A DNA stretch of 64,000 nucleotides from an uncultured Hyphomicrobiales bacterium (lineage in GTDB: Bacteria; Bacteroidota; Ignavibacteria; Kapaibacteriales; UBA2268), in contig CAZDXB010000007.1 of assembly GCA_964509335.1 (NCBI GenBank), positions 44,882 through 108,881 of the forward strand, given 5' to 3'. Shown here piece by piece: positions 3,856 to 56,562 of the stretch. The position numbers and the translations under genes were made by a program. Numbering within the stretch: the first letter of the stretch is position 1; each line of letters starts with the position of its first letter. Under the pieces are notes generated by a model. That model saw nothing but the letters and a program-made list of their open reading frames with translations, had not been told where the DNA came from and searched no databases.

Positions 3856-3873
3856 TAGCTGATTTTTCAACTC

Positions 3874-3920
3874 GTTCCGTCCGCTCCCGCGGCGGAACGC
3901 ATACTAAGAAGCTCTGCGTC
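3874..3920 (+). repeat. REP-like palindromic element family 1 (GTTCCGNCCGCTCCNGCGGCGGAAC + GACGCTCCGCGTC), copy a
   Basis: Imperfect inverted repeat GTTCCGTCCGCTCCCGCGGCGGAAC followed by a second small palindrome. Five further copies are in this window. This copy sits 19 bp after the stop of the DUF3078 gene. Confidence 0.8.
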
Positions 3921-3945
3921 TTCTAAAAACGCTTATTCTATAATC

Positions 3946-4059: not shown

Positions 4060-4074
4060 ATTTTTAACTCTTCA

Positions 4075-4105
4075 CTCATCCGATGACTCCGAGTCATCGG
4101 ATGAG
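4075..4105. repeat. Palindrome family 3 (CTCATCCGATGACTCnGAGTCATCGGATGAG)
   Basis: 31-bp perfect palindrome between the convergent DUF3078 and yoeB genes. An identical copy is at 56504-56534, downstream of the 1873-aa gene. Confidence 0.7.
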
Positions 4106-4121
4106 TGATGTCTATAAGCTG

Positions 4122-4168
4122 ATTCCGTCCGCTCCCGCGGCGGAACGCATACTAAGACGCTGCGCGTC
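4122..4168 (+). repeat. REP-like element family 1, copy b
   Basis: TTCCGTCCGCTCCCGCGGCGGAACGCATACTAAGACGCTGCGCGTC. It lies 200 bp from copy a and is near-identical to it. Confidence 0.8.
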
Positions 4169-4180
4169 TTCAAAAAACGC

Positions 4181-4441
4181 TTATCCGTAATGCGTCCACA
4201 TTTTAAGTATCTTAATTATCCTATCTTTTTCGTAAACTTGATAAACCAATCTATGTTGTTTATTTATCCTTCTTGATACGAATCCTTTTAATCTTCCTTT
4301 TAAGATTTCGTATTTAGGAGGATACGAGAACGGATCTTCCTTAATTATATCAAGCAATTTCTGAACTTTGCTTTTTAAATTTGATGCGGCAATTTTCTTT
4401 GAATCTTCTCGCGCTTGTTTAGTGAAATATATCTCCCACAT
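4181..4441 (-). CDS. yoeB: YoeB/Txe-family type II toxin (RelE/ParE superfamily)
   Basis: 86 aa. ...GFVSRRINKQHRLVYQVYEKDRIIKILKMWTHY matches the YoeB C-terminal catalytic region (RRI...HRLVY...RYHY-like). It is directly abutted by an upstream small antitoxin ORF. Confidence 0.75.
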   Translation of the reverse strand: MWEIYFTKQAREDSKKIAASNLKSKVQKLLDIIKEDPFSYPPKYEILKGRLKGFVSRRINKQHRLVYQVYEKDRIIKILKMWTHYG

Positions 4442-6341: not shown

Positions 6342-6466
6342 ATAGACCTAATTCCCAAATAGACCTAATTCCCAAATTAGAATTTGGGAATTAGAACTGA
6401 AGTGAAATCGGAATTTGGGAATTAGAACTGAAGTGAAATCGGAATTTGGGAATTAGAACTGAAATT
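6342..6466. repeat. Tandem array: 2 x 17-bp direct repeat (AGACCTAATTCCCAAAT) then ~2.8 x 31-bp unit (GAATTTGGGAATTAGAACTGAAGTGAAATCG) containing family-2 palindrome TTCCCAAATTAGAATTTGGGAA
   Basis: Read directly. Units begin at 6380, 6411 and 6442. The array sits between the convergent osmC-like and sensor kinase genes. Confidence 0.8.
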
Positions 6467-9500: not shown

Positions 9501-9978
9501 TATCCTCGTTGTTTTCCTGTTTAGCGAGAATTAAGTAGTTGTTATCGTAAGCGACGCCGTCCATAGCGTAATATCTCTTTCCATTCGCAAAGATTTTTTT
9601 TGTTACGGCGCCTTCTTTGTCAACAATAAACATTGAACCTTCGTTGAAATCAAATATTTCGTCTTTCAATCCGGCTCTGAAGTTCTTAAACGGAATGTTA
9701 GCGATTAATTCGATAGCTTTGGAAGAATCGTTCTTTAAAATCGGATGGAAAGAAAAATCCTCGTAATAGTATATTCCTTCTCCGCCCACTATATAGAGAG
9801 AACTGTCGGGCGTTTGGATTATATCGTTGATTGTAGCGCCTGTCAGCCCCGCGTTGGAACCGAACTCAATCCATCGCCACCGCTCATTTAACTTCTCCTC
9901 CAAATCAAGCGCTTTAGAGAAGTTAAAAGTAAAAACCAATATTAAAAGAGCGATTGCAAAACTAAAATAGCGTCTCAT
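6553..9978 (-). CDS. Sensor histidine kinase with periplasmic two-component-regulator beta-propeller/Y_Y_Y region, TM, PAS, HisKA and HATPase_c domains (no receiver domain)
   Basis: 1141 aa. Signal peptide, then a long repeat-rich extracytoplasmic region with WxxG..G..F propeller-like repeats. TM helix PWFVIPLIALAGVLYLALVFFYL. PAS (RYRYIIENANDGIV). H-box ISHQYRTPLTIVQTSIDLL. C-terminal ATPase with G-boxes (GGETNVQSEGEKIIFTIKIP). Confidence 0.8.
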   Translation of the reverse strand: MRRYFSFAIALLILVFTFNFSKALDLEEKLNERWRWIEFGSNAGLTGATINDIIQTPDSSLYIVGGEGIYYYEDFSFHPILKNDSSKAIELIANIPFKNFRAGLKDEIFDFNEGSMFIVDKEGAVTKKIFANGKRYYAMDGVAYDNNYLILAKQENNEDKNYKLYLYDGENLKRFPMPKAVKINREIEANNVLFYTKSKCLWLNAPQGLYSFRNGKWTQKMQTPFANKFGIQKIVENNLGYGFFQCYFPQNFMGVWEFANHGEPKLNEWEIEPRIKTADINQEGEALIVFGNGKVKIWKGAKWENIKYPSFNLKYAKEIHYDFNGDLWVISSNKIYLCRLESTLWSYITFKNSRRNNINEIYKASDGTTWIASNKGLTVISSDGSKRFITKILGVPLSIVTAINEDENGNIWVGSGTLLEQSYKWDGERWKKVILDPGNRDLRVHKIRKDSENRLWFLTLSSKDPSKGYCAYALENGEIRKFDADGKFSEERIYDFLEDSSGAYWFATAKGVVRYKNGGIKRWNSNGDFPINKVSSLAYDKTKDKMFFSLTHQGAIGFIKDDSVHIIQRESMKGLTITEIEIDNNGCLWIATNGGVIYYNGNCFFNIDISSGLTSDKIWPLLIDSNKIYFGSSGGINILQAERVCKDKISVALESSTKKEGSKTIVQWKINSFCLLDLKKICSQYRIDGGEWSSWTKSRKAEFNDLSSGEHTFELRFKRIFDAKGKEIFIQKFELETPMYKNPWFVIPLIALAGVLYLALVFFYLKRARYLNEIKQSRLNLEESEKRYRYIIENANDGIVTTRHGLFNYTNPKAAEMLGINPKKLIGRRIVDFVAEEFKSKAEEIIERLKKGLEAPDRMEIKLRRDDRSEFWADARLNKVEYDIGYGALIIVTDIDERKAVEKKLKESLEEEHKLSVMKSSIISNISHQYRTPLTIVQTSIDLLRIHYEKGDKDKFEKNLSKIQSAIDRMIRFLEDILLLGKIESSDIEVKKEQIVLKQFCDDLVKGAPKPEDKEVSVSVECNIDDDKVETDPYLLKIVVGKILKTALELALDKSQVKLCLERTGGWLLCEIYVGATSIDKERVENLFEPFYEGHLSEDSDADNFSLAIAKDCADILGGETNVQSEGEKIIFTIKIPERIS

Positions 9979-17235: not shown

Positions 17236-17250
17236 ATATTATATCGACTC

Positions 17251-17296
17251 GTTACGTCCGCTCCGGCGACGGAAAGCATACTAAGACGCTCCGCGT
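17251..17296 (+). repeat. REP-like element family 1, copy c (degenerate)
   Basis: CGTTACGTCCGCTCCGGCGACGGAAAGCATACTAAGACGCTCCGCGT, 16 bp after the nupC stop. Confidence 0.65.
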
Positions 17297-34115: not shown

Positions 34116-34147
34116 TCATTCCGAAATTGGAATTTCGGAATGAGGGA
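34116..34147. repeat. Hairpin repeat family 2 copy (TCATTCCGAAATTGGAATTTCGGAATGAGGG)
   Basis: Perfect palindrome. Confidence 0.7.
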
Positions 34148-34195
34148 TAGAGATAGAAGACTTGTTCTGCCGTTCTATCTACGGCTAATCAGAGT

Positions 34196-34869
34196 TTAAG
34201 GTGACAGGCGCTAACGATAGGCGGATAACCGACACGCTTTAGCGGTCGGATATCCTTTTTCGGCGATATCGAGCGATGGCAAATAGTTAAAGAGACTGTC
34301 TCGAAAGCAATAAATTCATACACGGGGGGCAAGCCCCGTGTGCTTCCAAAGTAAATCAGCGTAAAGCGATGGAATATAAACTTATCAGTCAATATTGAAA
34401 GGACGCATCGGGGCTAGCCCCGATGTAATATTTAAGTTTTTTAGGCAGTCGCTTCAGTTGTCGGCTTTCGTCAAGCGGCTTCTTAGCGTTAGCGGAAAGC
34501 TAAAGCTTTCCGTTTCCTTGGATTGCGAAGACGGGGGCGTCTTCGCTACTCTGTTTTGAAAAAATAAAAATAATATTTGGATTGTATAAATTTTGTTTTT
34601 ATATTTGTATTGGAATGTTATAAGTTCATATATATATATGATTTACAAAAACAAATAGAGGAGGCGTAAATTTGCCGGACATAATAGTTATAGAATGCCA
34701 AAGATTAAAACTGCCAAAATAAAGGACCGGCGAGAGTAAGCCGCGTCGCCGGTCCAATTATTGCGTCAACGCGCGTTCCCGAGTTTAAGATGTTATATTC
34801 GCGTTATAACTGCGGCTCGGGAACGCCGCCTATAATAACAATTACAAATTTAATAAAAAGGAAAGAGTT
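34196..34869 (+). promoter_or_regulatory. Long conserved non-coding leader, copy 1: ~100-bp conserved block (34196-34300), ~260-bp hairpin-rich unique segment, then ~310-bp block (34560-34869) with AT-rich promoter-like region, SD-preceded 16-codon uORF (34672-34722) and two GC-rich stem-loops (34724-34755; 34773-34826)
   Basis: 34560-34886 is ~95 % identical to 38566-38891, and 34196-34300 is ~85 % identical to 38336-38440. Hairpins GGACCGGCGA-N12-TCGCCGGTCC and GCGTTCCCGAG-N32-CTCGGGAACGC are identical in both copies. The uORF AGAGGAGG-7nt-TTG is MPDIIVIECQRLKLPK. Confidence 0.6.
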
Positions 34870-35457
34870 ATGAAAAAGATAATTTTGTTAATAATAGGTT
34901 TAATGTTTTTATCGTTTGTAATTTTGAAATCGCAACCAGCTTGCGAGCCTTGTTCATCTCAAACTACTTGGGCAAATGCACCTGTTAGTGTTTTACACGT
35001 TGTAATATCTGGTTCGGGATGCGAATTTGACGTTGAATACCAAACAATATTCTGCCTGACAGATGGAACTTGTAATTTTAGAATATTAAAACTCTACAAT
35101 ATTTTGGAGGCTTGCGACGGTTATGGTCCATTGGAATTACTAGAACAAGCGGCGCTGCAAATTATAAAAAACGATGGTATGTTCAAACAATGCTGGCCAT
35201 CTGGCTCTGGAGATTGTGTAGAACAAACTAGAGAGTGGTCCGCGGCTTGCTGGAAGTGGAAAGGAAACGTTGGTCCAGGACCGGGAACTACAGCTACGCT
35301 TAAGCCTTGCGAAACAGAGTCCTGTTGCGAATCCTATTATATGATTTGTAATGAAGGAGGAGCAATTATTGTTTATAAAACATATACAGAGGCAACTCAT
35401 CCTTGCGTGAATCCCGGTCCTGAGTGCTTTATAAGATGTGATTCTGGAGAAAAATAA
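34870..35457 (+). CDS. Cysteine-rich secreted protein (195 aa, ~19 Cys), uncharacterised family; paralog of 38875-39450
   Basis: Signal peptide MKKIILLIIGLMFLSFVILKS. C.PC near the mature N-terminus and the motif GCEFDVEYQTIFC match C.C and HCVFEAYYC in the paralog. The first 17 nt of the CDS are identical to the paralog, as part of the duplicated leader. Confidence 0.6.
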   Translation: MKKIILLIIGLMFLSFVILKSQPACEPCSSQTTWANAPVSVLHVVISGSGCEFDVEYQTIFCLTDGTCNFRILKLYNILEACDGYGPLELLEQAALQIIKNDGMFKQCWPSGSGDCVEQTREWSAACWKWKGNVGPGPGTTATLKPCETESCCESYYMICNEGGAIIVYKTYTEATHPCVNPGPECFIRCDSGEK

Positions 35458-35467
35458 GGAGTAAAAT

Positions 35468-35992
35468 ATGAAAAAAATAATGTATATAATCGTGATGGCG
35501 TTAATGTTAACGATTATTTCGTCGGAGCAAAAATTAGACGCCAAAACAATATCGTTTGACGAAATTAAATACAAAACGTTTATTTATTATAACTTAGAAG
35601 ATAATTATGTTAAAAGATTTTACGAAGGATATTCTCTTAAAGAATACTTGCCGGTTAAAAAAGTAAAAGAGATAAAAAATAATCTGGAAACAATAAGGAA
35701 TGATAGCCAAGCTAAAATAGAAAATTTCGATTGTTTCAACGTCGATATAAGAATTTATCCGAATCCCGCTAGTAGTTATTTTAACGTTTCGCTAAATTCT
35801 GACGACGATATTAAGGAAGTGAAGATAGAGATAATAGACAAATTGGGAAGAACTATTCGCGTTTACAATCGCGAAGGATTGAAAGGAAAAAATAAAGTTA
35901 GAATAGATTTAAGCGGCGTTGAGAAAGGTAGCTACATAGTTAGAGCGGCAATAGGCTCGGCGATGAAAACGGCAAAATTAATCGTTTATTAG
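35468..35992 (+). CDS. Small protein consisting mainly of a T9SS C-terminal sorting domain
   Basis: 174 aa, signal peptide. The C-terminal ~80 aa IRIYPNPASSYFNVSLN...IEIIDKLGRTIRVYN...IDLSGVEKGSYIVRAAIGSAMKTAKLIVY matches the T9SS type-A CTD pattern. Confidence 0.6.
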   Translation: MKKIMYIIVMALMLTIISSEQKLDAKTISFDEIKYKTFIYYNLEDNYVKRFYEGYSLKEYLPVKKVKEIKNNLETIRNDSQAKIENFDCFNVDIRIYPNPASSYFNVSLNSDDDIKEVKIEIIDKLGRTIRVYNREGLKGKNKVRIDLSGVEKGSYIVRAAIGSAMKTAKLIVY

Positions 35993-36062
35993 AGAAGGAT
36001 AAAAGGGGAGGGAATAAATTCTCTCCCCTCGAATTTTCAATAAAAATCGGAGGCTTAATAAA

Positions 36063-38219
36063 ATGAAACGAAATATAATGTTATCAATATTAATATTTAC
36101 CGCTTCTTTCGCCGTTTGTTTTTCCCAGTTAGTTCCAAAATGGGAAATTGGCGCAGCGTCATTTACTCATAATGAATACAGATACGACGGATACCAATTT
36201 AATAAAATAGCGGGAACGAGTGAAAACGATATTATCGTTTTAGGTCAAAGTTACAATGCTGAAAATGGTTATTTTCCTGCAATTTGGCGTTTTAAAAATA
36301 AAGCCGACGAAAGAGAAATATTATATACAGACACAACTAAACAAGATAAAGGCCCCGATATCGCTACTCACGAGTTTAGGTCAATCGCGAAACCCGCACA
36401 TAACTACATAATCGCCGTCGGGGATTCTAACAAATATCAAGGAGAGTTTAAAGTCGAAGGAAAATTCGGCGAAGCTTGGCAAGAGTTTTATTTTAGAACT
36501 GGTTTTATGTTAATCTCAACCGACGGCGGCGAAAGTTGGAATAAAACAACGCTCGATTCTAACACCAAGTTAAACGAGGTAAGAATGCTCGATAACGACT
36601 ATGGGGTAATACTCGAGGAAGGTTGGGAGAATTATTACAACCAAAGAGAATTAATAAATAACGACACTTTGCTAATAACTAAAGACGGATGGAAAACATA
36701 CGAACAAATAAAACTTCCAGAAACAATAGAATATCCGGACGATATTTTCATTTTATCAAAGGATACGTTGGCTATTTTATGCTGGGACGCGGACACAAAA
36801 CGAACGTTTATTATTTTTTCCTACGACGGCGGCAAAAATTGGGAAGACGAATTTTACTTCGACGAAACCGTTCGTATTCAGGATATTGAATTTATAGGAA
36901 ACAAAGCTTACGCCGTTGGATGGTACGAACCGAGTTTATTGTCCGACACCGTTACTAATCCTTATGTTGATATTTCCGTTCAATTTCCTTATATCGCTTA
37001 TAGCGAAAATCGCGGACGTTCTTGGAGAAAACTCGAAAGCTTTCCAGTAGAAATTAACGATATAATTAAAGATTACGGACATAGGTTATACAGCGTTGAT
37101 TTTTGCGACAGTATAAACGGTATCGTAAGCGGATTTAGCGACAGTGCGAATCCTTACGTTTTTAAAACGACCGACGGCGGCGAAAGTTGGGAACGAGAAT
37201 ATTTGCCCTTTAGTTATCACAATCAAGCTTTGCTTATGAATATATATTTTCCGAGAAAAAATTACGCTCTAGTTTTTAATCAATCCAGATATGTTTACAA
37301 ATATGAAGGCGATAAACTTTTGGCTATGCCGAAATTTTATAAATTTAGCAACGTTCCAATAGAGAATTTGAAATTGAGATGGGCGTCGATAGAAGGGGCT
37401 AAAAATTATAGAATAAAAATTGACAGCACGAGAAAATGGTTTAGCGAATCTACCGGAATTAAAACCTATCCCGAGCCGGATTTCGAAAGTCCAATTATCG
37501 ATACTACAATAGCAGATACGTCTGTACTATTTGAGAAACTTATGTACGAATCGCGCATAGTCGCTTTTGTGAAAGCTATCGGCGAGTCGAGAGAAAGTTA
37601 CTGGCGTCGCTATATATTTGTAACTAATACTAGAGAAAATTATTTATATCAACCGAAGTTTGTATTTCCTAAATCTGTTACGATTATACGTGAATCGAGA
37701 GCGGAATTTAAATGGCGCGCTGTTAAGCCCGCAACCAAATATTACTTGACCATAGAAAATAAAGCTAACAGAGAAGTAATATTCAGGGATACGTTATCAG
37801 CCGTAGATACTAGCGTCGTAGTAATCGGTTTCGAGCCGAACACGGGTTATATGGCGCGTTTAGAAGCGACGAGAGGAAATGAATCATCCGGGGACTTAGC
37901 TTTTTTTATAACGGCGACGGAGTTGCCTGTTAGAGAGCGCAAAGAATACGAACCGATAACGAGTTTACGTATTTACCCTAACCCGACTTATTCTAGTATT
38001 AATCTTTCCGTGAATTTAAAAAGCCGAAGCAAAATTGAAATAGATTTGATAAATAGTTGGGGTTCAAAAATTGACAGGATATTTGGCGGTTATCAAACTG
38101 ACGGTTGTCATACTTTCCGCCATGCGCCGGAACCGGATTTGCCATCGGGAACGTATTGGATACGAGCGACTATTGACGGAGAGAAGCAAGTAGCAAAGCC
38201 GGTTGTGATATTAAAATAG
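36063..38219 (+). CDS. BNR/Asp-box repeat beta-propeller protein with FN3-like domains and T9SS C-terminal sorting domain
   Basis: 718 aa, signal peptide. Asp-box repeats STDGGESWNKT, SYDGGKNWEDE, TTDGGESWERE. FN3-like segments (KLRWASIEGAKNYRIKID; EFKWRAVKPATKYYLTIEN). C-terminal LRIYPNPTYSSINLSVN...VVILK CTD. Confidence 0.7.
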   Translation: MKRNIMLSILIFTASFAVCFSQLVPKWEIGAASFTHNEYRYDGYQFNKIAGTSENDIIVLGQSYNAENGYFPAIWRFKNKADEREILYTDTTKQDKGPDIATHEFRSIAKPAHNYIIAVGDSNKYQGEFKVEGKFGEAWQEFYFRTGFMLISTDGGESWNKTTLDSNTKLNEVRMLDNDYGVILEEGWENYYNQRELINNDTLLITKDGWKTYEQIKLPETIEYPDDIFILSKDTLAILCWDADTKRTFIIFSYDGGKNWEDEFYFDETVRIQDIEFIGNKAYAVGWYEPSLLSDTVTNPYVDISVQFPYIAYSENRGRSWRKLESFPVEINDIIKDYGHRLYSVDFCDSINGIVSGFSDSANPYVFKTTDGGESWEREYLPFSYHNQALLMNIYFPRKNYALVFNQSRYVYKYEGDKLLAMPKFYKFSNVPIENLKLRWASIEGAKNYRIKIDSTRKWFSESTGIKTYPEPDFESPIIDTTIADTSVLFEKLMYESRIVAFVKAIGESRESYWRRYIFVTNTRENYLYQPKFVFPKSVTIIRESRAEFKWRAVKPATKYYLTIENKANREVIFRDTLSAVDTSVVVIGFEPNTGYMARLEATRGNESSGDLAFFITATELPVRERKEYEPITSLRIYPNPTYSSINLSVNLKSRSKIEIDLINSWGSKIDRIFGGYQTDGCHTFRHAPEPDLPSGTYWIRATIDGEKQVAKPVVILK

Positions 38220-38239
38220 CTTCGAATATCATTAAACTC

Positions 38240-38313
38240 TTCCGTCCGCTCCAGCGGCGGAACGCATATTGAGACGCTCCGCGTCGTTTTTTCTTTGCCG
38301 CGCAGAGCGCGGG
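38240..38313 (+). repeat. REP-like element family 1, extended copy d (three hairpins: GTTCCG..CGGAAC, GACGCTCCGCGTC+T6, CCGCGCAGAGCGCGG)
   Basis: Begins 21 bp after the 36063-38219 stop. The long form is shared with copy e. Confidence 0.8.
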
Positions 38314-38335
38314 TTATTTTGGAATGAGGGGGAAG

Positions 38336-38874
38336 AGGGCGCTAACGATAGGCGGTAAACCGACACGCCTTAGCGGTCGGCAATCGTATCGCGGCAATAT
38401 TGAGCGCTGGCAAATAGTTAAAGCTATCGGTTGCCGAAAGATTACTTTGAAATATCGCATAGTTTTTGTGCGTATAAACCAATATAATATAAAATATTTA
38501 TAGAATATCTATGTTCACATGTGAACATTTTCAGCCCGCTATGTTCATATGTGAACATAGCTTAAATAATAAAAATAATATTTGGATTGTATAAATATTG
38601 TTTTTATATTTGTATCGGAATGTTATAAGTCCATATATATATATGATTTACAAAAATAAATAGAGGAGGCGTAAATTTGCCGAACATAATAGTTTTAGAA
38701 GGGCGAAGATTAAAACTGCCTAAATAAAGGACCGGCGAGAGTAAGCCGCGTCGCCGGTCCAATTATTGCGTCAAAGCGCGTTCCCGAGTTAAAGATGTTA
38801 TATTCGCGTTATAACTGCGGCTCGGGAACGCCTCCTATAATAACAATTGCAAATTTAATAAAAAGGAAAGAGTT
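38336..38874 (+). promoter_or_regulatory. Conserved non-coding leader, copy 2 (100-bp block 38336-38440; unique AT-rich segment with two perfect palindromes at 38511-38528 and 38539-38560; 310-bp block 38566-38874 with uORF 38677-38727 MPNIIVLEGRRLKLPK and the same two stem-loops)
   Basis: See copy 1. Palindromes ATGTTCACATGTGAACAT and CTATGTTCATATGTGAACATAG, read directly. Confidence 0.6.
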
Positions 38875-39450
38875 ATGAAAAAGATAATTTTAATATCGAT
38901 AACAATAGTCTTATTAGGATTAACTTTTAGCGCTAATAAGCTTAACGCACAGTGCGATTGCCCTCAAGACATACCGCCAACGAATATACCTTGGACTGTG
39001 GAAGGTCCCCATTATATCTTCATATACGACGACGAAGGTGACCATTGCGTTTTTGAGGCATATTATTGCTGGCGTAAAATTCTAGATTATTATCCGTCGC
39101 CGGAAATTCAAGTTGTTGTTTGTAAATATAGTCCTACGGAAGATTGCAACGAGAATTTTAATCTTTCGGTTTGGGAAATATATAAAAAATTGGGAATAAA
39201 AATAATTGAATTAAATCCAGATAATTTAGATTGGCCCGCTCCACCTTGTCCATATGGTTATCCATATTACTCAGTAGTAACTTTCGGTTGCTATGATGTA
39301 TATGACGAAACCCCGTGCGGCGGTTTAGTGTATTGTAAATACTTATTTGAAGTTTGTATGAGTGCGGGTCAAAGGATAACTAAGCCATTAGGAGCGACGA
39401 CGGTTGGAGACGAATGTCCGGTCGGGTGCGATAACAAATGCGGCGATTAA
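38875..39450 (+). CDS. Cysteine-rich secreted protein (191 aa, ~18 Cys), divergent paralog of 34870-35457
   Basis: Signal peptide MKKIILISITIVLLGLTFSANKLNA. Mature QCDCPQD...; HCVFEAYYC; C-terminal ECPVGCDNKCGD. Confidence 0.6.
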   Translation: MKKIILISITIVLLGLTFSANKLNAQCDCPQDIPPTNIPWTVEGPHYIFIYDDEGDHCVFEAYYCWRKILDYYPSPEIQVVVCKYSPTEDCNENFNLSVWEIYKKLGIKIIELNPDNLDWPAPPCPYGYPYYSVVTFGCYDVYDETPCGGLVYCKYLFEVCMSAGQRITKPLGATTVGDECPVGCDNKCGD

Positions 39451-41954: not shown

Positions 41955-41974
41955 GCGGAAACTAACTTTCAACT

Positions 41975-42051
41975 CGTTCCGCCCGCTCCAGCGGCGGAAC
42001 GCATACCCAGACGCTCCGCGTCGTTTTTTCTTTGCCGCGCAGAGCGCGGGG
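41975..42051 (+). repeat. REP-like element family 1, extended copy e
   Basis: GTTCCGCCCGCTCCAGCGGCGGAACGCATACCCAGACGCTCCGCGTCGTTTTTTCTTTGCCGCGCAGAGCGCGGG, 21 bp after the 41954 stop. Confidence 0.8.
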
Positions 42052-42153
42052 AATTTATGAGGCGAAACACTGATTCAGCTTACCCTCCTTCCAAAACTCC
42101 GATTTTGGAAGGTTATTTATATCAATTTGTCGCGGTGTCGTTTAATGACGCGC

Positions 42154-43866: not shown

Positions 43867-43893
43867 AGACAAACAAAATCGCTACGATTAAAC

Positions 43894-43943
43894 GACGCGG
43901 AGCGTCTCAATATGCGTTCCGCCGCGGGAGCGGGCGGAACGAG
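43894..43943 (-). repeat. REP-like element family 1, copy f (reverse orientation)
   Basis: Reverse complement reads GTTCCGCCCGCTCCCGCGGCGGAACGCATATTGAGACGCTCCGCGTC. It lies ~80 bp downstream of the minus-strand metalloprotease stop, in matching orientation. Confidence 0.8.
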
Positions 43944-44020
43944 CCGAGTAAACGGGGTATCCCTTCTACTAGTCGTTGTAGAGACGCAAAATTTTGCGTC
44001 TCTACTTTTTCAGCTTCGAA

Positions 44021-56330: not shown

Positions 56331-56503
56331 TTGTCATTTAATTTATCAAATCGAGGAATGTTTTGTTTCGCCGCATTTGTGAGGCGTTCTAAGGGGGATT
56401 TGATTAATCATATCTATACCTCTACGGAAACAAATTGTAGTTTTCACTAGCTCCGTCCTTTAGAGCGGAGGAATGAAAACTACGTAATTCGTAATTTTTC
56501 CTA

Positions 56504-56534
56504 CTCATCCGATGACTCGGAGTCATCGGATGAG
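56504..56534. repeat. Palindrome family 3 copy (CTCATCCGATGACTCGGAGTCATCGGATGAG)
   Basis: Perfect palindrome 29 bp downstream of the 1873-aa gene stop. Confidence 0.7.
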
Positions 56535-56562
56535 TTTCGTCTCTTCAGAAGATTAATTAAAT

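Follow-up and report, generated by a model that had tools for sequence, protein, structure and literature searches.

This analysis concerns a leader region within a 64,000-nucleotide (nt) stretch of DNA from an uncultured bacterium placed by GTDB in the Kapaibacteriales (contig CAZDXB010000007.1, positions 44,882 to 108,881 of the forward strand; hereafter the window). Two adjacent operons in this window, each starting with a gene for a cysteine-rich secreted protein, lie behind nearly identical copies of a promoter-leader module, and the 5' untranslated region (5' UTR) of this module contains a stem-loop, hairpin 2, with counterparts in the leaders of related loci from two other lineages. The best overall explanation, to which we assign a somewhat better than even chance, is a homogenised promoter-leader module with a conserved hairpin 2 that probably acts post-transcriptionally. 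The module stands before each of two anciently diverged operons for cysteine-rich proteins and beta-propeller proteins of the type IX secretion system (T9SS), and recent copying or gene conversion keeps it nearly identical within the genome. Hairpin 2 in turn has been kept in base sequence, pairing, and position (47 to 49 nt from the start codon) across the three lineages compared, and it might serve as a processing or stability determinant or be bound by a regulator through which the paralogous operons are controlled together. A post-transcriptional role seems the most likely one because the ribosome-binding site (RBS) of the downstream gene is not occluded and no terminator tail follows the hairpin. 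The interval is therefore probably a structured, homogenised 5'-UTR module and unlikely to be a leader-peptide attenuator, as an earlier sequence-only reading of the same DNA had proposed on the basis of a short upstream open reading frame (uORF) preceded by a Shine-Dalgarno (SD)-like sequence and followed by two hairpins. The features in question are the following (aa, amino acids; bp, base pairs).

34559..34886, + strand: repeat module copy 1 (promoter, 5' UTR, and first 17 nt of the coding sequence), 95.4% identical to copy 2
34576..34607, + strand: Bacteroidota-type promoter TTTG-N20-TATATTTG (-33/-7 boxes), located by motif
34628..34639, + strand: (AT)6 simple repeat within the leader, of equal length in both copies
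34657..34664 (copy 2: 38662-38669), + strand: SD-like AGAGGAGG, either RBS of the uORF or 5' strand of a helix with 34824-34831
34672..34722, + strand: 16-codon uORF MPDIIVIECQRLKLPK with TTG start, 7-nt spacer after the SD-like sequence
34724..34755, + strand: hairpin 1, perfect 10-bp stem GGACCGGCGA/TCGCCGGTCC with 12-nt loop, beginning 1 nt after the uORF stop
34773..34826, + strand: hairpin 2, perfect 11-bp stem GCGTTCCCGAG/CTCGGGAACGC with 32-nt loop (13 bp counting G.U)
34824..34831, + strand: anti-SD-like CGCCGCCU (copy 2: CGCCUCCU), directly behind hairpin 2 on its 3' side
34855..34872, + strand: main RBS (AAAAAGGAAAGAG) and ATG (at 34870) of the gene for the 195-aa cysteine-rich secreted protein
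34870..38219, + strand: operon 1, encoding the 195-aa cysteine-rich secreted protein, a 174-aa T9SS-tail protein, and a 718-aa BNR/T9SS-tail protein
38564..38891, + strand: repeat module copy 2, every sub-feature offset by +4005 from copy 1
38677-38727, + strand: copy-2 uORF MPNIIVLEGRRLKLPK, 16 codons
38875..41954, + strand: operon 2, encoding a 191-aa cysteine-rich secreted protein and an 838-aa Ycf48/BNR-like T9SS-tail protein

The two copies of the module form a direct repeat, and their pairwise comparison counts 15 differences over the whole 328 nt, where the sequence-only reading had put the number at about 14. The edges of the repeat are sharp, with identity at the random level just outside both ends. 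Independent Logan assemblies of the same organism are broken at window position 34857 and at about 38283, both of them repeats, so that the repeats are not an assembly artefact. Behind the module, the two cysteine-rich proteins are only about 28% identical (BLASTP E = 0.011, with cysteine landmarks in common) and their BNR partner proteins about 24%; set against the 95.4% identity of the modules, these values show a young leader block in front of operons that are old paralogs. It is true, as the earlier reading had emphasised, that no stem position differs between the copies, but the absence of substitutions at all 42 stem positions has a chance probability of P = 0.14-0.25 at about 4% divergence, and the unchanged stems therefore carry little information. 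The near-identity of the copies, stems included, is the result of recent copying of a 328-bp block and not of selection on the stems. More generally, two near-identical paralogous leaders carry almost no information on selection for a stem or a uORF; the identity in the present case reflects concerted evolution of a promoter-leader block. Some other explanations were considered and rejected: the block ends without the terminal inverted repeats or target duplications of a miniature inverted-repeat transposable element or other transposon, the core sites of an integron attC site are absent, and an invertible promoter does not fit repeats that are direct and arms that lie only 32 nt apart.

A profile search with the cysteine-rich proteins gave 37 cluster representatives, mostly of 170-220 aa, and the contigs of three family members, L131, L137, and L138 (the latter a Joint Genome Institute contig of which 17.5 kb were examined), were compared with the window. 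L138 carries five tandem units, each of them behind a promoter-leader module of about 340 nt; these modules are about 95% identical or more, and their promoter layout matches that of the window. The cysteine-rich proteins of units 1-3 are about 20-26% identical and the BNR proteins 24-27%, with one recent duplicate pair at 92%. Overall, the five operons of L138 are 18-27% identical. L138 presents the situation of the window on a larger scale, with a regulatory block homogenised within the genome and proteins that have diverged. In L131 a gene of this family follows a promoter and a leader of about 140 nt, shorter than that of the window, while in L137 a leader of this kind is missing and the spacer measures just 85 nt.

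Hairpin 2, which ends 43 nt before the ATG at 34870, contains an inner hairpin (GUUAUA/UAUAAC, 34792-34810) and a conserved core in which UCCCGAGUU (34777-34785) pairs with GGCUCGGGA (34814-34822). The base of its stem, UCCCG...YGGGA, is common to the window, L131, and L138, and hairpins of at least 9 bp with this base occurred only in these leaders when low-GC DNA (the window and most related loci) was scanned. The A of GGGA precedes the ATG by 47 nt in the two copies of the window, in L131, and in operon 1 of L138, and by 49 nt in operons 2-4 of L138; the sequences in between differ. Pairs 5-9 of the stem covary among the three lineages (A-U/G-C/G-U, G-C/A-U, U-G/A-U/G-C), and each lineage has its own perfectly paired inner hairpin (UUGGGUA/UACCCAA, UUGGAC/GUCCAA, GUUAUA/UAUAAC). 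Between L131 and L138 the leaders are clearly homologous over a 97-nt segment (z = 17-19), which folds as one long hairpin of irregular shape. No sequence leaves a pair of the 11-bp main stem open, the stem includes 3 compensatory double changes, and all 14 pairs are formed in the comparison of the two lineages. Given three independent observations, namely the shared base motif, the fixed spacing to the AUG, and the compensatory pairs, we regard hairpin 2 as equivalent to the element of L131 and L138 and as a real conserved RNA structure that is the local form of a leader element found across lineages. The secondary idea of the sequence-only reading, in which hairpin 2 has a function, for example as a roadblock or processing site, fits the base motif, the spacing of 47-49 nt, and the compensatory changes.

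Several points weigh against the interpretation of hairpin 2 as a conserved post-transcriptional element. The comparison covers three lineages (the window, L131, and L138), and a covariance model built from L131 and L138 (R1) scores window positions 34768-34838 at just 6.1 bits, which is not significant (E about 7 in 5.5 kb); the model has an effective sequence number of 1.18 and is dominated by the interior sequence of its two lineages. The homology of hairpin 2 rests on the base motif, position, and architecture and not on the covariance model; when the leaders of the window, L131, and L138 were aligned with MAFFT, hairpin 2 was misplaced. Both the transcription start and the presence of the hairpins in the mRNA are predicted from promoter motifs, and the proposed functions of stability, processing, or regulator docking amount to a choice among candidate options. 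The 5' half of the leader, finally, has a weak yet significant similarity to L138, where an open reading frame (ORF) spans the GATTAAAA block in the same frame, and the uORF region may thus have a coding role.

The predicted transcription start lies at about 34614, which gives a leader of about 255 nt. From its TAnnTTTG box to the gene start there are 263 nt, compared to 22-167 nt for about 10 other genes of the window, and the leader is therefore exceptionally long. The sequence TATAAT occurs without mismatch at 34831-34836, at a distance of 33 nt from the ATG, but it has neither a -35 partner nor a TAnnTTTG box, and reading GGGAAC as part of an extracytoplasmic function-type promoter was rejected because it lacks a -10 partner. 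As side observations, a second TAnnTTTG box (TAAATTTG, 34667-34674) overlaps the TTG start of the uORF, and transcription would begin within the uORF if this box served as promoter. Phase variation through the (AT)6 run was considered and dismissed on account of its identical length in both copies. Copy 2 alone has a pair of perfect 18-bp palindromes shortly before its promoter, ATGTTCAcATGTGAACAT (38511-38528) and ATGTTCAtATGTGAACAT (38541-38558), which look operator-like and could regulate the two operons differently despite identical leaders.

Both copies fold far more stably than shuffled sequences (z = -4.2 and -4.9), as do the leaders of L131 (z = -4.5) and L138 (z = -3.3), and the two copies form different local hairpins in the uORF region. 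The two hairpins are more than a chance feature: apart from them, the window has no perfect stem that reaches 10 bp and includes 8 G-C pairs, and hairpin 1 occurs twice, once per module copy. Outside the window, no counterpart of hairpin 1 was seen in L131, and its place in L138 is taken by a hairpin of only 6 bp that is broken in two of the five copies. A search of Rfam 15 at gathering and permissive thresholds gave no match for the leaders of the window, L131, or L138. Scanning genome contigs for the hairpin-1 palindrome GGACCGGCGA-N8-16-TCGCCGGTCC returned at least 117 loci and was dominated by hairpins that arise by chance where genomes are rich in G+C; none of the loci listed matched the leader by BLAST. 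A metagenome scan with the 19-mer CGCCGGTCCAATTATTGCG gave four matches, all by chance, and neither a viral-contig scan for hairpin 2 nor blastn against plasmid and phage collections yielded anything relevant.

The proposal of the sequence-only reading started from components that are all in place: the uORF, its SD-like sequence, and both hairpins were found at their coordinates in both copies by reading, a coordinate script, and a scan for perfect hairpins. Leader-peptide attenuation would mean that translation of the uORF picks between leader structures and so controls read-through to, or translation of, the gene for the cysteine-rich protein. This is the arrangement of the trp/his/pheA transcription attenuators and the ermC/cat translational attenuators, which like the window leader combine a long leader with a short SD-preceded ORF and stable hairpins close behind, the stop of the leader ORF being placed such that a ribosome would disturb the first hairpin. 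A ribosome at the uORF stop would indeed be expected to melt the 5' arm of hairpin 1, and this arm can also pair over 8 bp with the start region of the uORF (UUUGCCGG), reminiscent of a 1:2 versus 2:3 layout. The strong SD-like sequence 7 nt before a TTG and the uORF frame that is intact in both copies also speak for such a mechanism, as do the SD-like sequences carried by other genes here and in L138. In copy 2, moreover, occupation of the uORF SD would free CCUCCU and make the main SD less accessible, with a predicted value of 0.38 instead of 0.63.

Nonetheless, the decisive parts of an attenuator are missing. A U-tract is missing behind both hairpins (the sequence after hairpin 1 is AAUUAUUGCG and that after hairpin 2 CGCCUAUAAUAAC), and a terminator scan called neither of them terminator-like. 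In the free leader the main SD is predicted to be largely unpaired (probability 0.79 for copy 1, 0.63 for copy 2); every fold of copy 1 leaves the RBS open, and in copy 2 it is open for the most part. Modelling a ribosome on the start or stop of the uORF did not raise the accessibility of the main SD, and SD and AUG were not sequestered. When mutually exclusive structures were sought by folding, as the earlier reading had suggested, the sole competitor of hairpin 1 was a weak helix of 7-8 bp with the uORF start that includes G.U pairs and is weakened further in copy 2 by G34678A. Opening hairpin 1 leaves its 3' arm without an alternative partner and hairpin 2 unaffected, so that nothing changes downstream. 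The leader thus differs from trp/his-type attenuators in lacking a terminator U-tract, mutually exclusive pairings, regulatory codons, and a conserved leader ORF, and from the ermC/cat type, in which the RBS of the structural gene is sequestered, by an RBS that is free.

The uORF itself fares no better. It is the most diverged segment of the module, with 6 differences in 51 nt compared to 9 in 277 nt elsewhere (Fisher P = 0.017); the sequence-only reading had counted 5, but TGC to GGG comprises two changes. These changes cause 4 amino-acid replacements and 1 synonymous substitution. Runs of regulatory codons are absent, and the one Cys codon found in copy 1 reads Gly in copy 2, for which reason a Cys-sensing leader peptide was discarded. 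Among the 41 GGAGG sites of the window, 14 are followed by ATG, GTG, or TTG 4-10 nt later, mostly at short chance ORFs and in only 2 cases at real genes, so that an SD followed by a uORF is by itself not beyond chance. The strong form of the SD-like sequence is absent from the leaders of both L138 and L131, and the uORF half of the leader is missing altogether from L131. In L138, the similarity to 34638-34722 is weak but significant (local z = 2.5; 4.6 with the promoter) and resides in the common blocks ATAGAG, TGC(C)GGAC, and GATTAAAAYTNCC(C)AAA. The stop codon TAA of the window uORF corresponds to CAA there, and the distance from the GGAC block to the GATTAAAA block is 33 nt in L138 versus 26 nt in the window; because of this difference of 7 nt, the frame is lost across the region. 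The candidate ORFs at this place in L138, one of 9 codons with ATG and one of 42 codons with GTG, are each in the window frame at one block only. Homologous leaders from two outside lineages (L131 and L138) therefore lack a conserved frame at the position of the uORF, contrary to what the attenuation proposal required. Taken together, we consider leader-peptide attenuation very unlikely; folds, terminator scan, and relatives gave no evidence linking the uORF to control of the downstream gene in this way. The strong SD, the 16-codon uORF, and hairpin 1 are lineage-specific additions outside the conserved core.

The uORF may still be translated in this organism. Its strong SD, 7-nt spacer, and TTG fit translation, while the same combination is frequent by chance in the window. 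Ribosomes of the class Bacteroidia ignore SD sequences (PMC7797042, PMC9976891), but SD-like sequences precede several other genes here as well as the main genes of L138, which makes translation of the uORF possible and suggests that SD-ignoring may not hold in this lineage.

What remains are readings in which the conspicuous elements do something else or nothing at all. The SD-like sequence need not be a start signal; it could be one strand of a long-range helix that closes a multi-helix domain of about 170 nt, or a decoy of the STAB-SD type that stabilises the mRNA. In copy 2, both the minimum free energy (MFE) fold and the centroid fold close the domain with AGGAGGC/GCCUCCU stacked on hairpin 2, extendable to the 9-bp helix AGGAGGCGU/ACGCCUCCU of SD-like with anti-SD-like sequence that the MFE fold shows, and STAB-SD elements are established in leaders of Firmicutes (PMC4113751, PMC5737220). 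However, one difference between the copies, 34828 (G/T), falls in the anti-SD-like sequence, and in copy 1 the helix is interrupted by an A.G mismatch so that only a shifted 5-bp version is predicted. Complementarity of 7 bp somewhere in 255 nt is expected by chance, and the helix is absent from the relatives, as is the SD-like sequence from L138 and L131. STAB-SD elements, moreover, are known only from Gram-positive bacteria with RNase J, and we have little confidence in this reading. The hairpins could alternatively have no role as RNA and be operator or recombination sites at the DNA level, or passengers of the conversion tract and of palindromes resembling repetitive extragenic palindromic (REP) elements. 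This would agree with the repeated GC-rich hairpin modules after genes in this genome (six copies in the window), with a leader that is itself a homogenised repeat, and with TATAAT at 34831-34836 if it were a second promoter that leaves hairpin 2 upstream of the transcript. Nested covarying stems and compensatory inner hairpins are typical of RNA and not of protein-binding palindromes, though, the TATAAT lacks partner boxes as described above, and the hairpin arms are found nowhere in the window beyond the two module copies; we judge this reading unlikely. Lowest in our estimation, and highly improbable, is a separate small gene in which the upstream promoter drives a 16-aa peptide or a small RNA ending at hairpin 1 or 2 while the gene for the cysteine-rich protein has its own promoter. 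The peptide is conserved at its ends and variable in its centre, hairpin 1 follows directly after the stop codon, and a gene for a TPR-domain histidine kinase lies directly upstream. However, both hairpins lack a terminator tail, a convincing promoter further downstream is missing, neither L138 nor L131 conserves the peptide, and no kinase adjoins the L138 array.

A more far-reaching version of the favored explanation takes the UCCCG...YGGGA hairpin as an undescribed cis-regulatory RNA of tandem arrays of cysteine-rich and T9SS genes that is read by a trans-acting factor, with selection for shared control homogenising the module and with the SD-uORF and SD/anti-SD pairs adding a translation-coupled layer in this organism. 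Its scope would be the uncultured Bacteroidota related to Kapabacteria and Ignavibacteria, in which the factor would co-ordinate the operons or choose among them. We put this joint reading forward tentatively and hold it to be possible rather than probable.

In its way of working, the leader seems to us most like the 5'-UTR stabilisers. To our knowledge, no stabiliser of the ompA, STAB-SD, or hbs kind has been described in Bacteroidota. Escherichia coli ompA, the STAB-SD of Bacillus thuringiensis cryIIIA, and Bacillus subtilis hbs (PMC4113751, PMC5737220) resemble it in having stem-loops or an SD-like sequence together with an accessible RBS, and the gene behind the window leader encodes a secreted protein presumably made in quantity. 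Unlike them, the window leader has a fixed spacing of 47-49 nt to the AUG and a conserved UCCCG/GGGA base; such stabilisers work directly at the mature 5' end or close to it, and the 5' end here is a predicted one. The Rfam families of cis-regulatory and small RNAs offer the similar case of a structured non-coding element upstream of a gene family, but none of them matches. What appears to be new is thus a structured leader motif absent from Rfam and embedded in the homogenised regulatory module of a tandem repertoire of secreted proteins.

Another parallel comes from the vsp/vpma/vsa loci of Mycoplasma, where the 5' UTR and the start of the signal peptide are conserved and the remaining genes are unrelated (PMC2268961). 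The window and L138 likewise have a conserved 5' UTR and signal-peptide start before otherwise dissimilar tandem genes for secreted proteins. Loci related to vsp/vpma have simple-sequence tracts near the promoter, to which a poly-C tract of L138 is comparable. This tract lies about 75 nt upstream of the predicted transcription starts (e.g., 9650-9659) and comprises 5 (interrupted), 9, 10, 8, and 8 C, a length variation that would fit slipped-strand phase variation of individual operons. In contrast to vsp/vpma, the units are co-oriented here and each has its own promoter-like boxes, and no recombinase was found among the neighbour genes scanned or listed beside either array (window and L138), so that inversion-based switching is not indicated. 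Units 4 and 5 of L138 (13636-13743 and 16818-16925) hold a 35-codon in-frame remnant of the gene for the cysteine-rich protein that consists of the signal peptide and the last 9 residues, which is evidence that recombination or deletion is still at work in the array.

The family to which the locus belongs is small and unannotated; in it, a cysteine-rich protein of about 190 aa is paired with a beta-propeller T9SS cargo in tandem arrays. Homogenised regulatory modules in front of proteins diverged to about 20-28% identity are typical of surface or secreted repertoires under diversifying selection, and the conserved, precisely placed leader hairpin is a concrete candidate for the control of such a repertoire. 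Little is known of how Bacteroidota regulate genes post-transcriptionally, and even their SD usage is atypical (PMC7797042, PMC9976891).

The AlphaFold model of the cysteine-rich protein is confident, with no structural relative among solved structures. In a word-indexed protein search, the 195-aa protein matched only itself, and the 191-aa protein had one homolog of 59% identity on 1.9-kb contigs with merely 81 nt 5' of the start codon. The two Logan contigs with this homolog, L118 and L119, stem from different samples and begin at the same base 81 nt before the start codon, as one would expect of assemblies that ended at a leader repeat present in several copies in that organism too. The glutamine synthetase of the window is at most 67% identical to anything on record, with best matches labelled Bacteroidota, Kapabacteria, or Ignavibacteria, and the source organism is an isolated lineage by this marker. 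Its sequences are present in the data sets SRR7048228, SRR7048219, and SRR7048225. In the nearest genome (67% for glutamine synthetase), the upstream genes are shared while the kinase and the locus of the cysteine-rich proteins are lacking.

Other repeats were noted in the window. A 12-nt sequence at 34145-34156, GGATAGAGATAG, is identical to part of the L138 leader and follows a UCAUUCCGAAAU/AUUUCGGAAUGA hairpin (34116-34143) that resembles the stem of L131; this may be what is left of an earlier leader copy that stood in front of the present one. Each leader copy is also preceded by an 86-nt element (34207-34292 and 38338-38423, 86% identical) without a match in Rfam, which is predicted to fold as a closed hairpin domain and whose two copies are crossed by minus-strand ORFs that share their frame. 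The repeated G+C-rich hairpin modules mentioned above lie at 3865-3936, 4123-4184, 17244-17296, 38232-38319, and 41967-42056 on the + strand and at 43888-43947 on the - strand. They consist of CGTTCCGCC..GGCGGAACG, then GACGCtccGCGTC with a T run, and then GCCGCGCagaGCGCGG, are 85-96% alike, are nearly all located just 3' of a gene, and look like REP-like or shared terminator cassettes. Further intergenic repeats are perfect palindromes of the TCACTCATCCGATGACT type, forming hairpins at 4072-4108 and 56503-56535, and a cluster of CTAATTCCCAAAT hairpins at 6348-6425.

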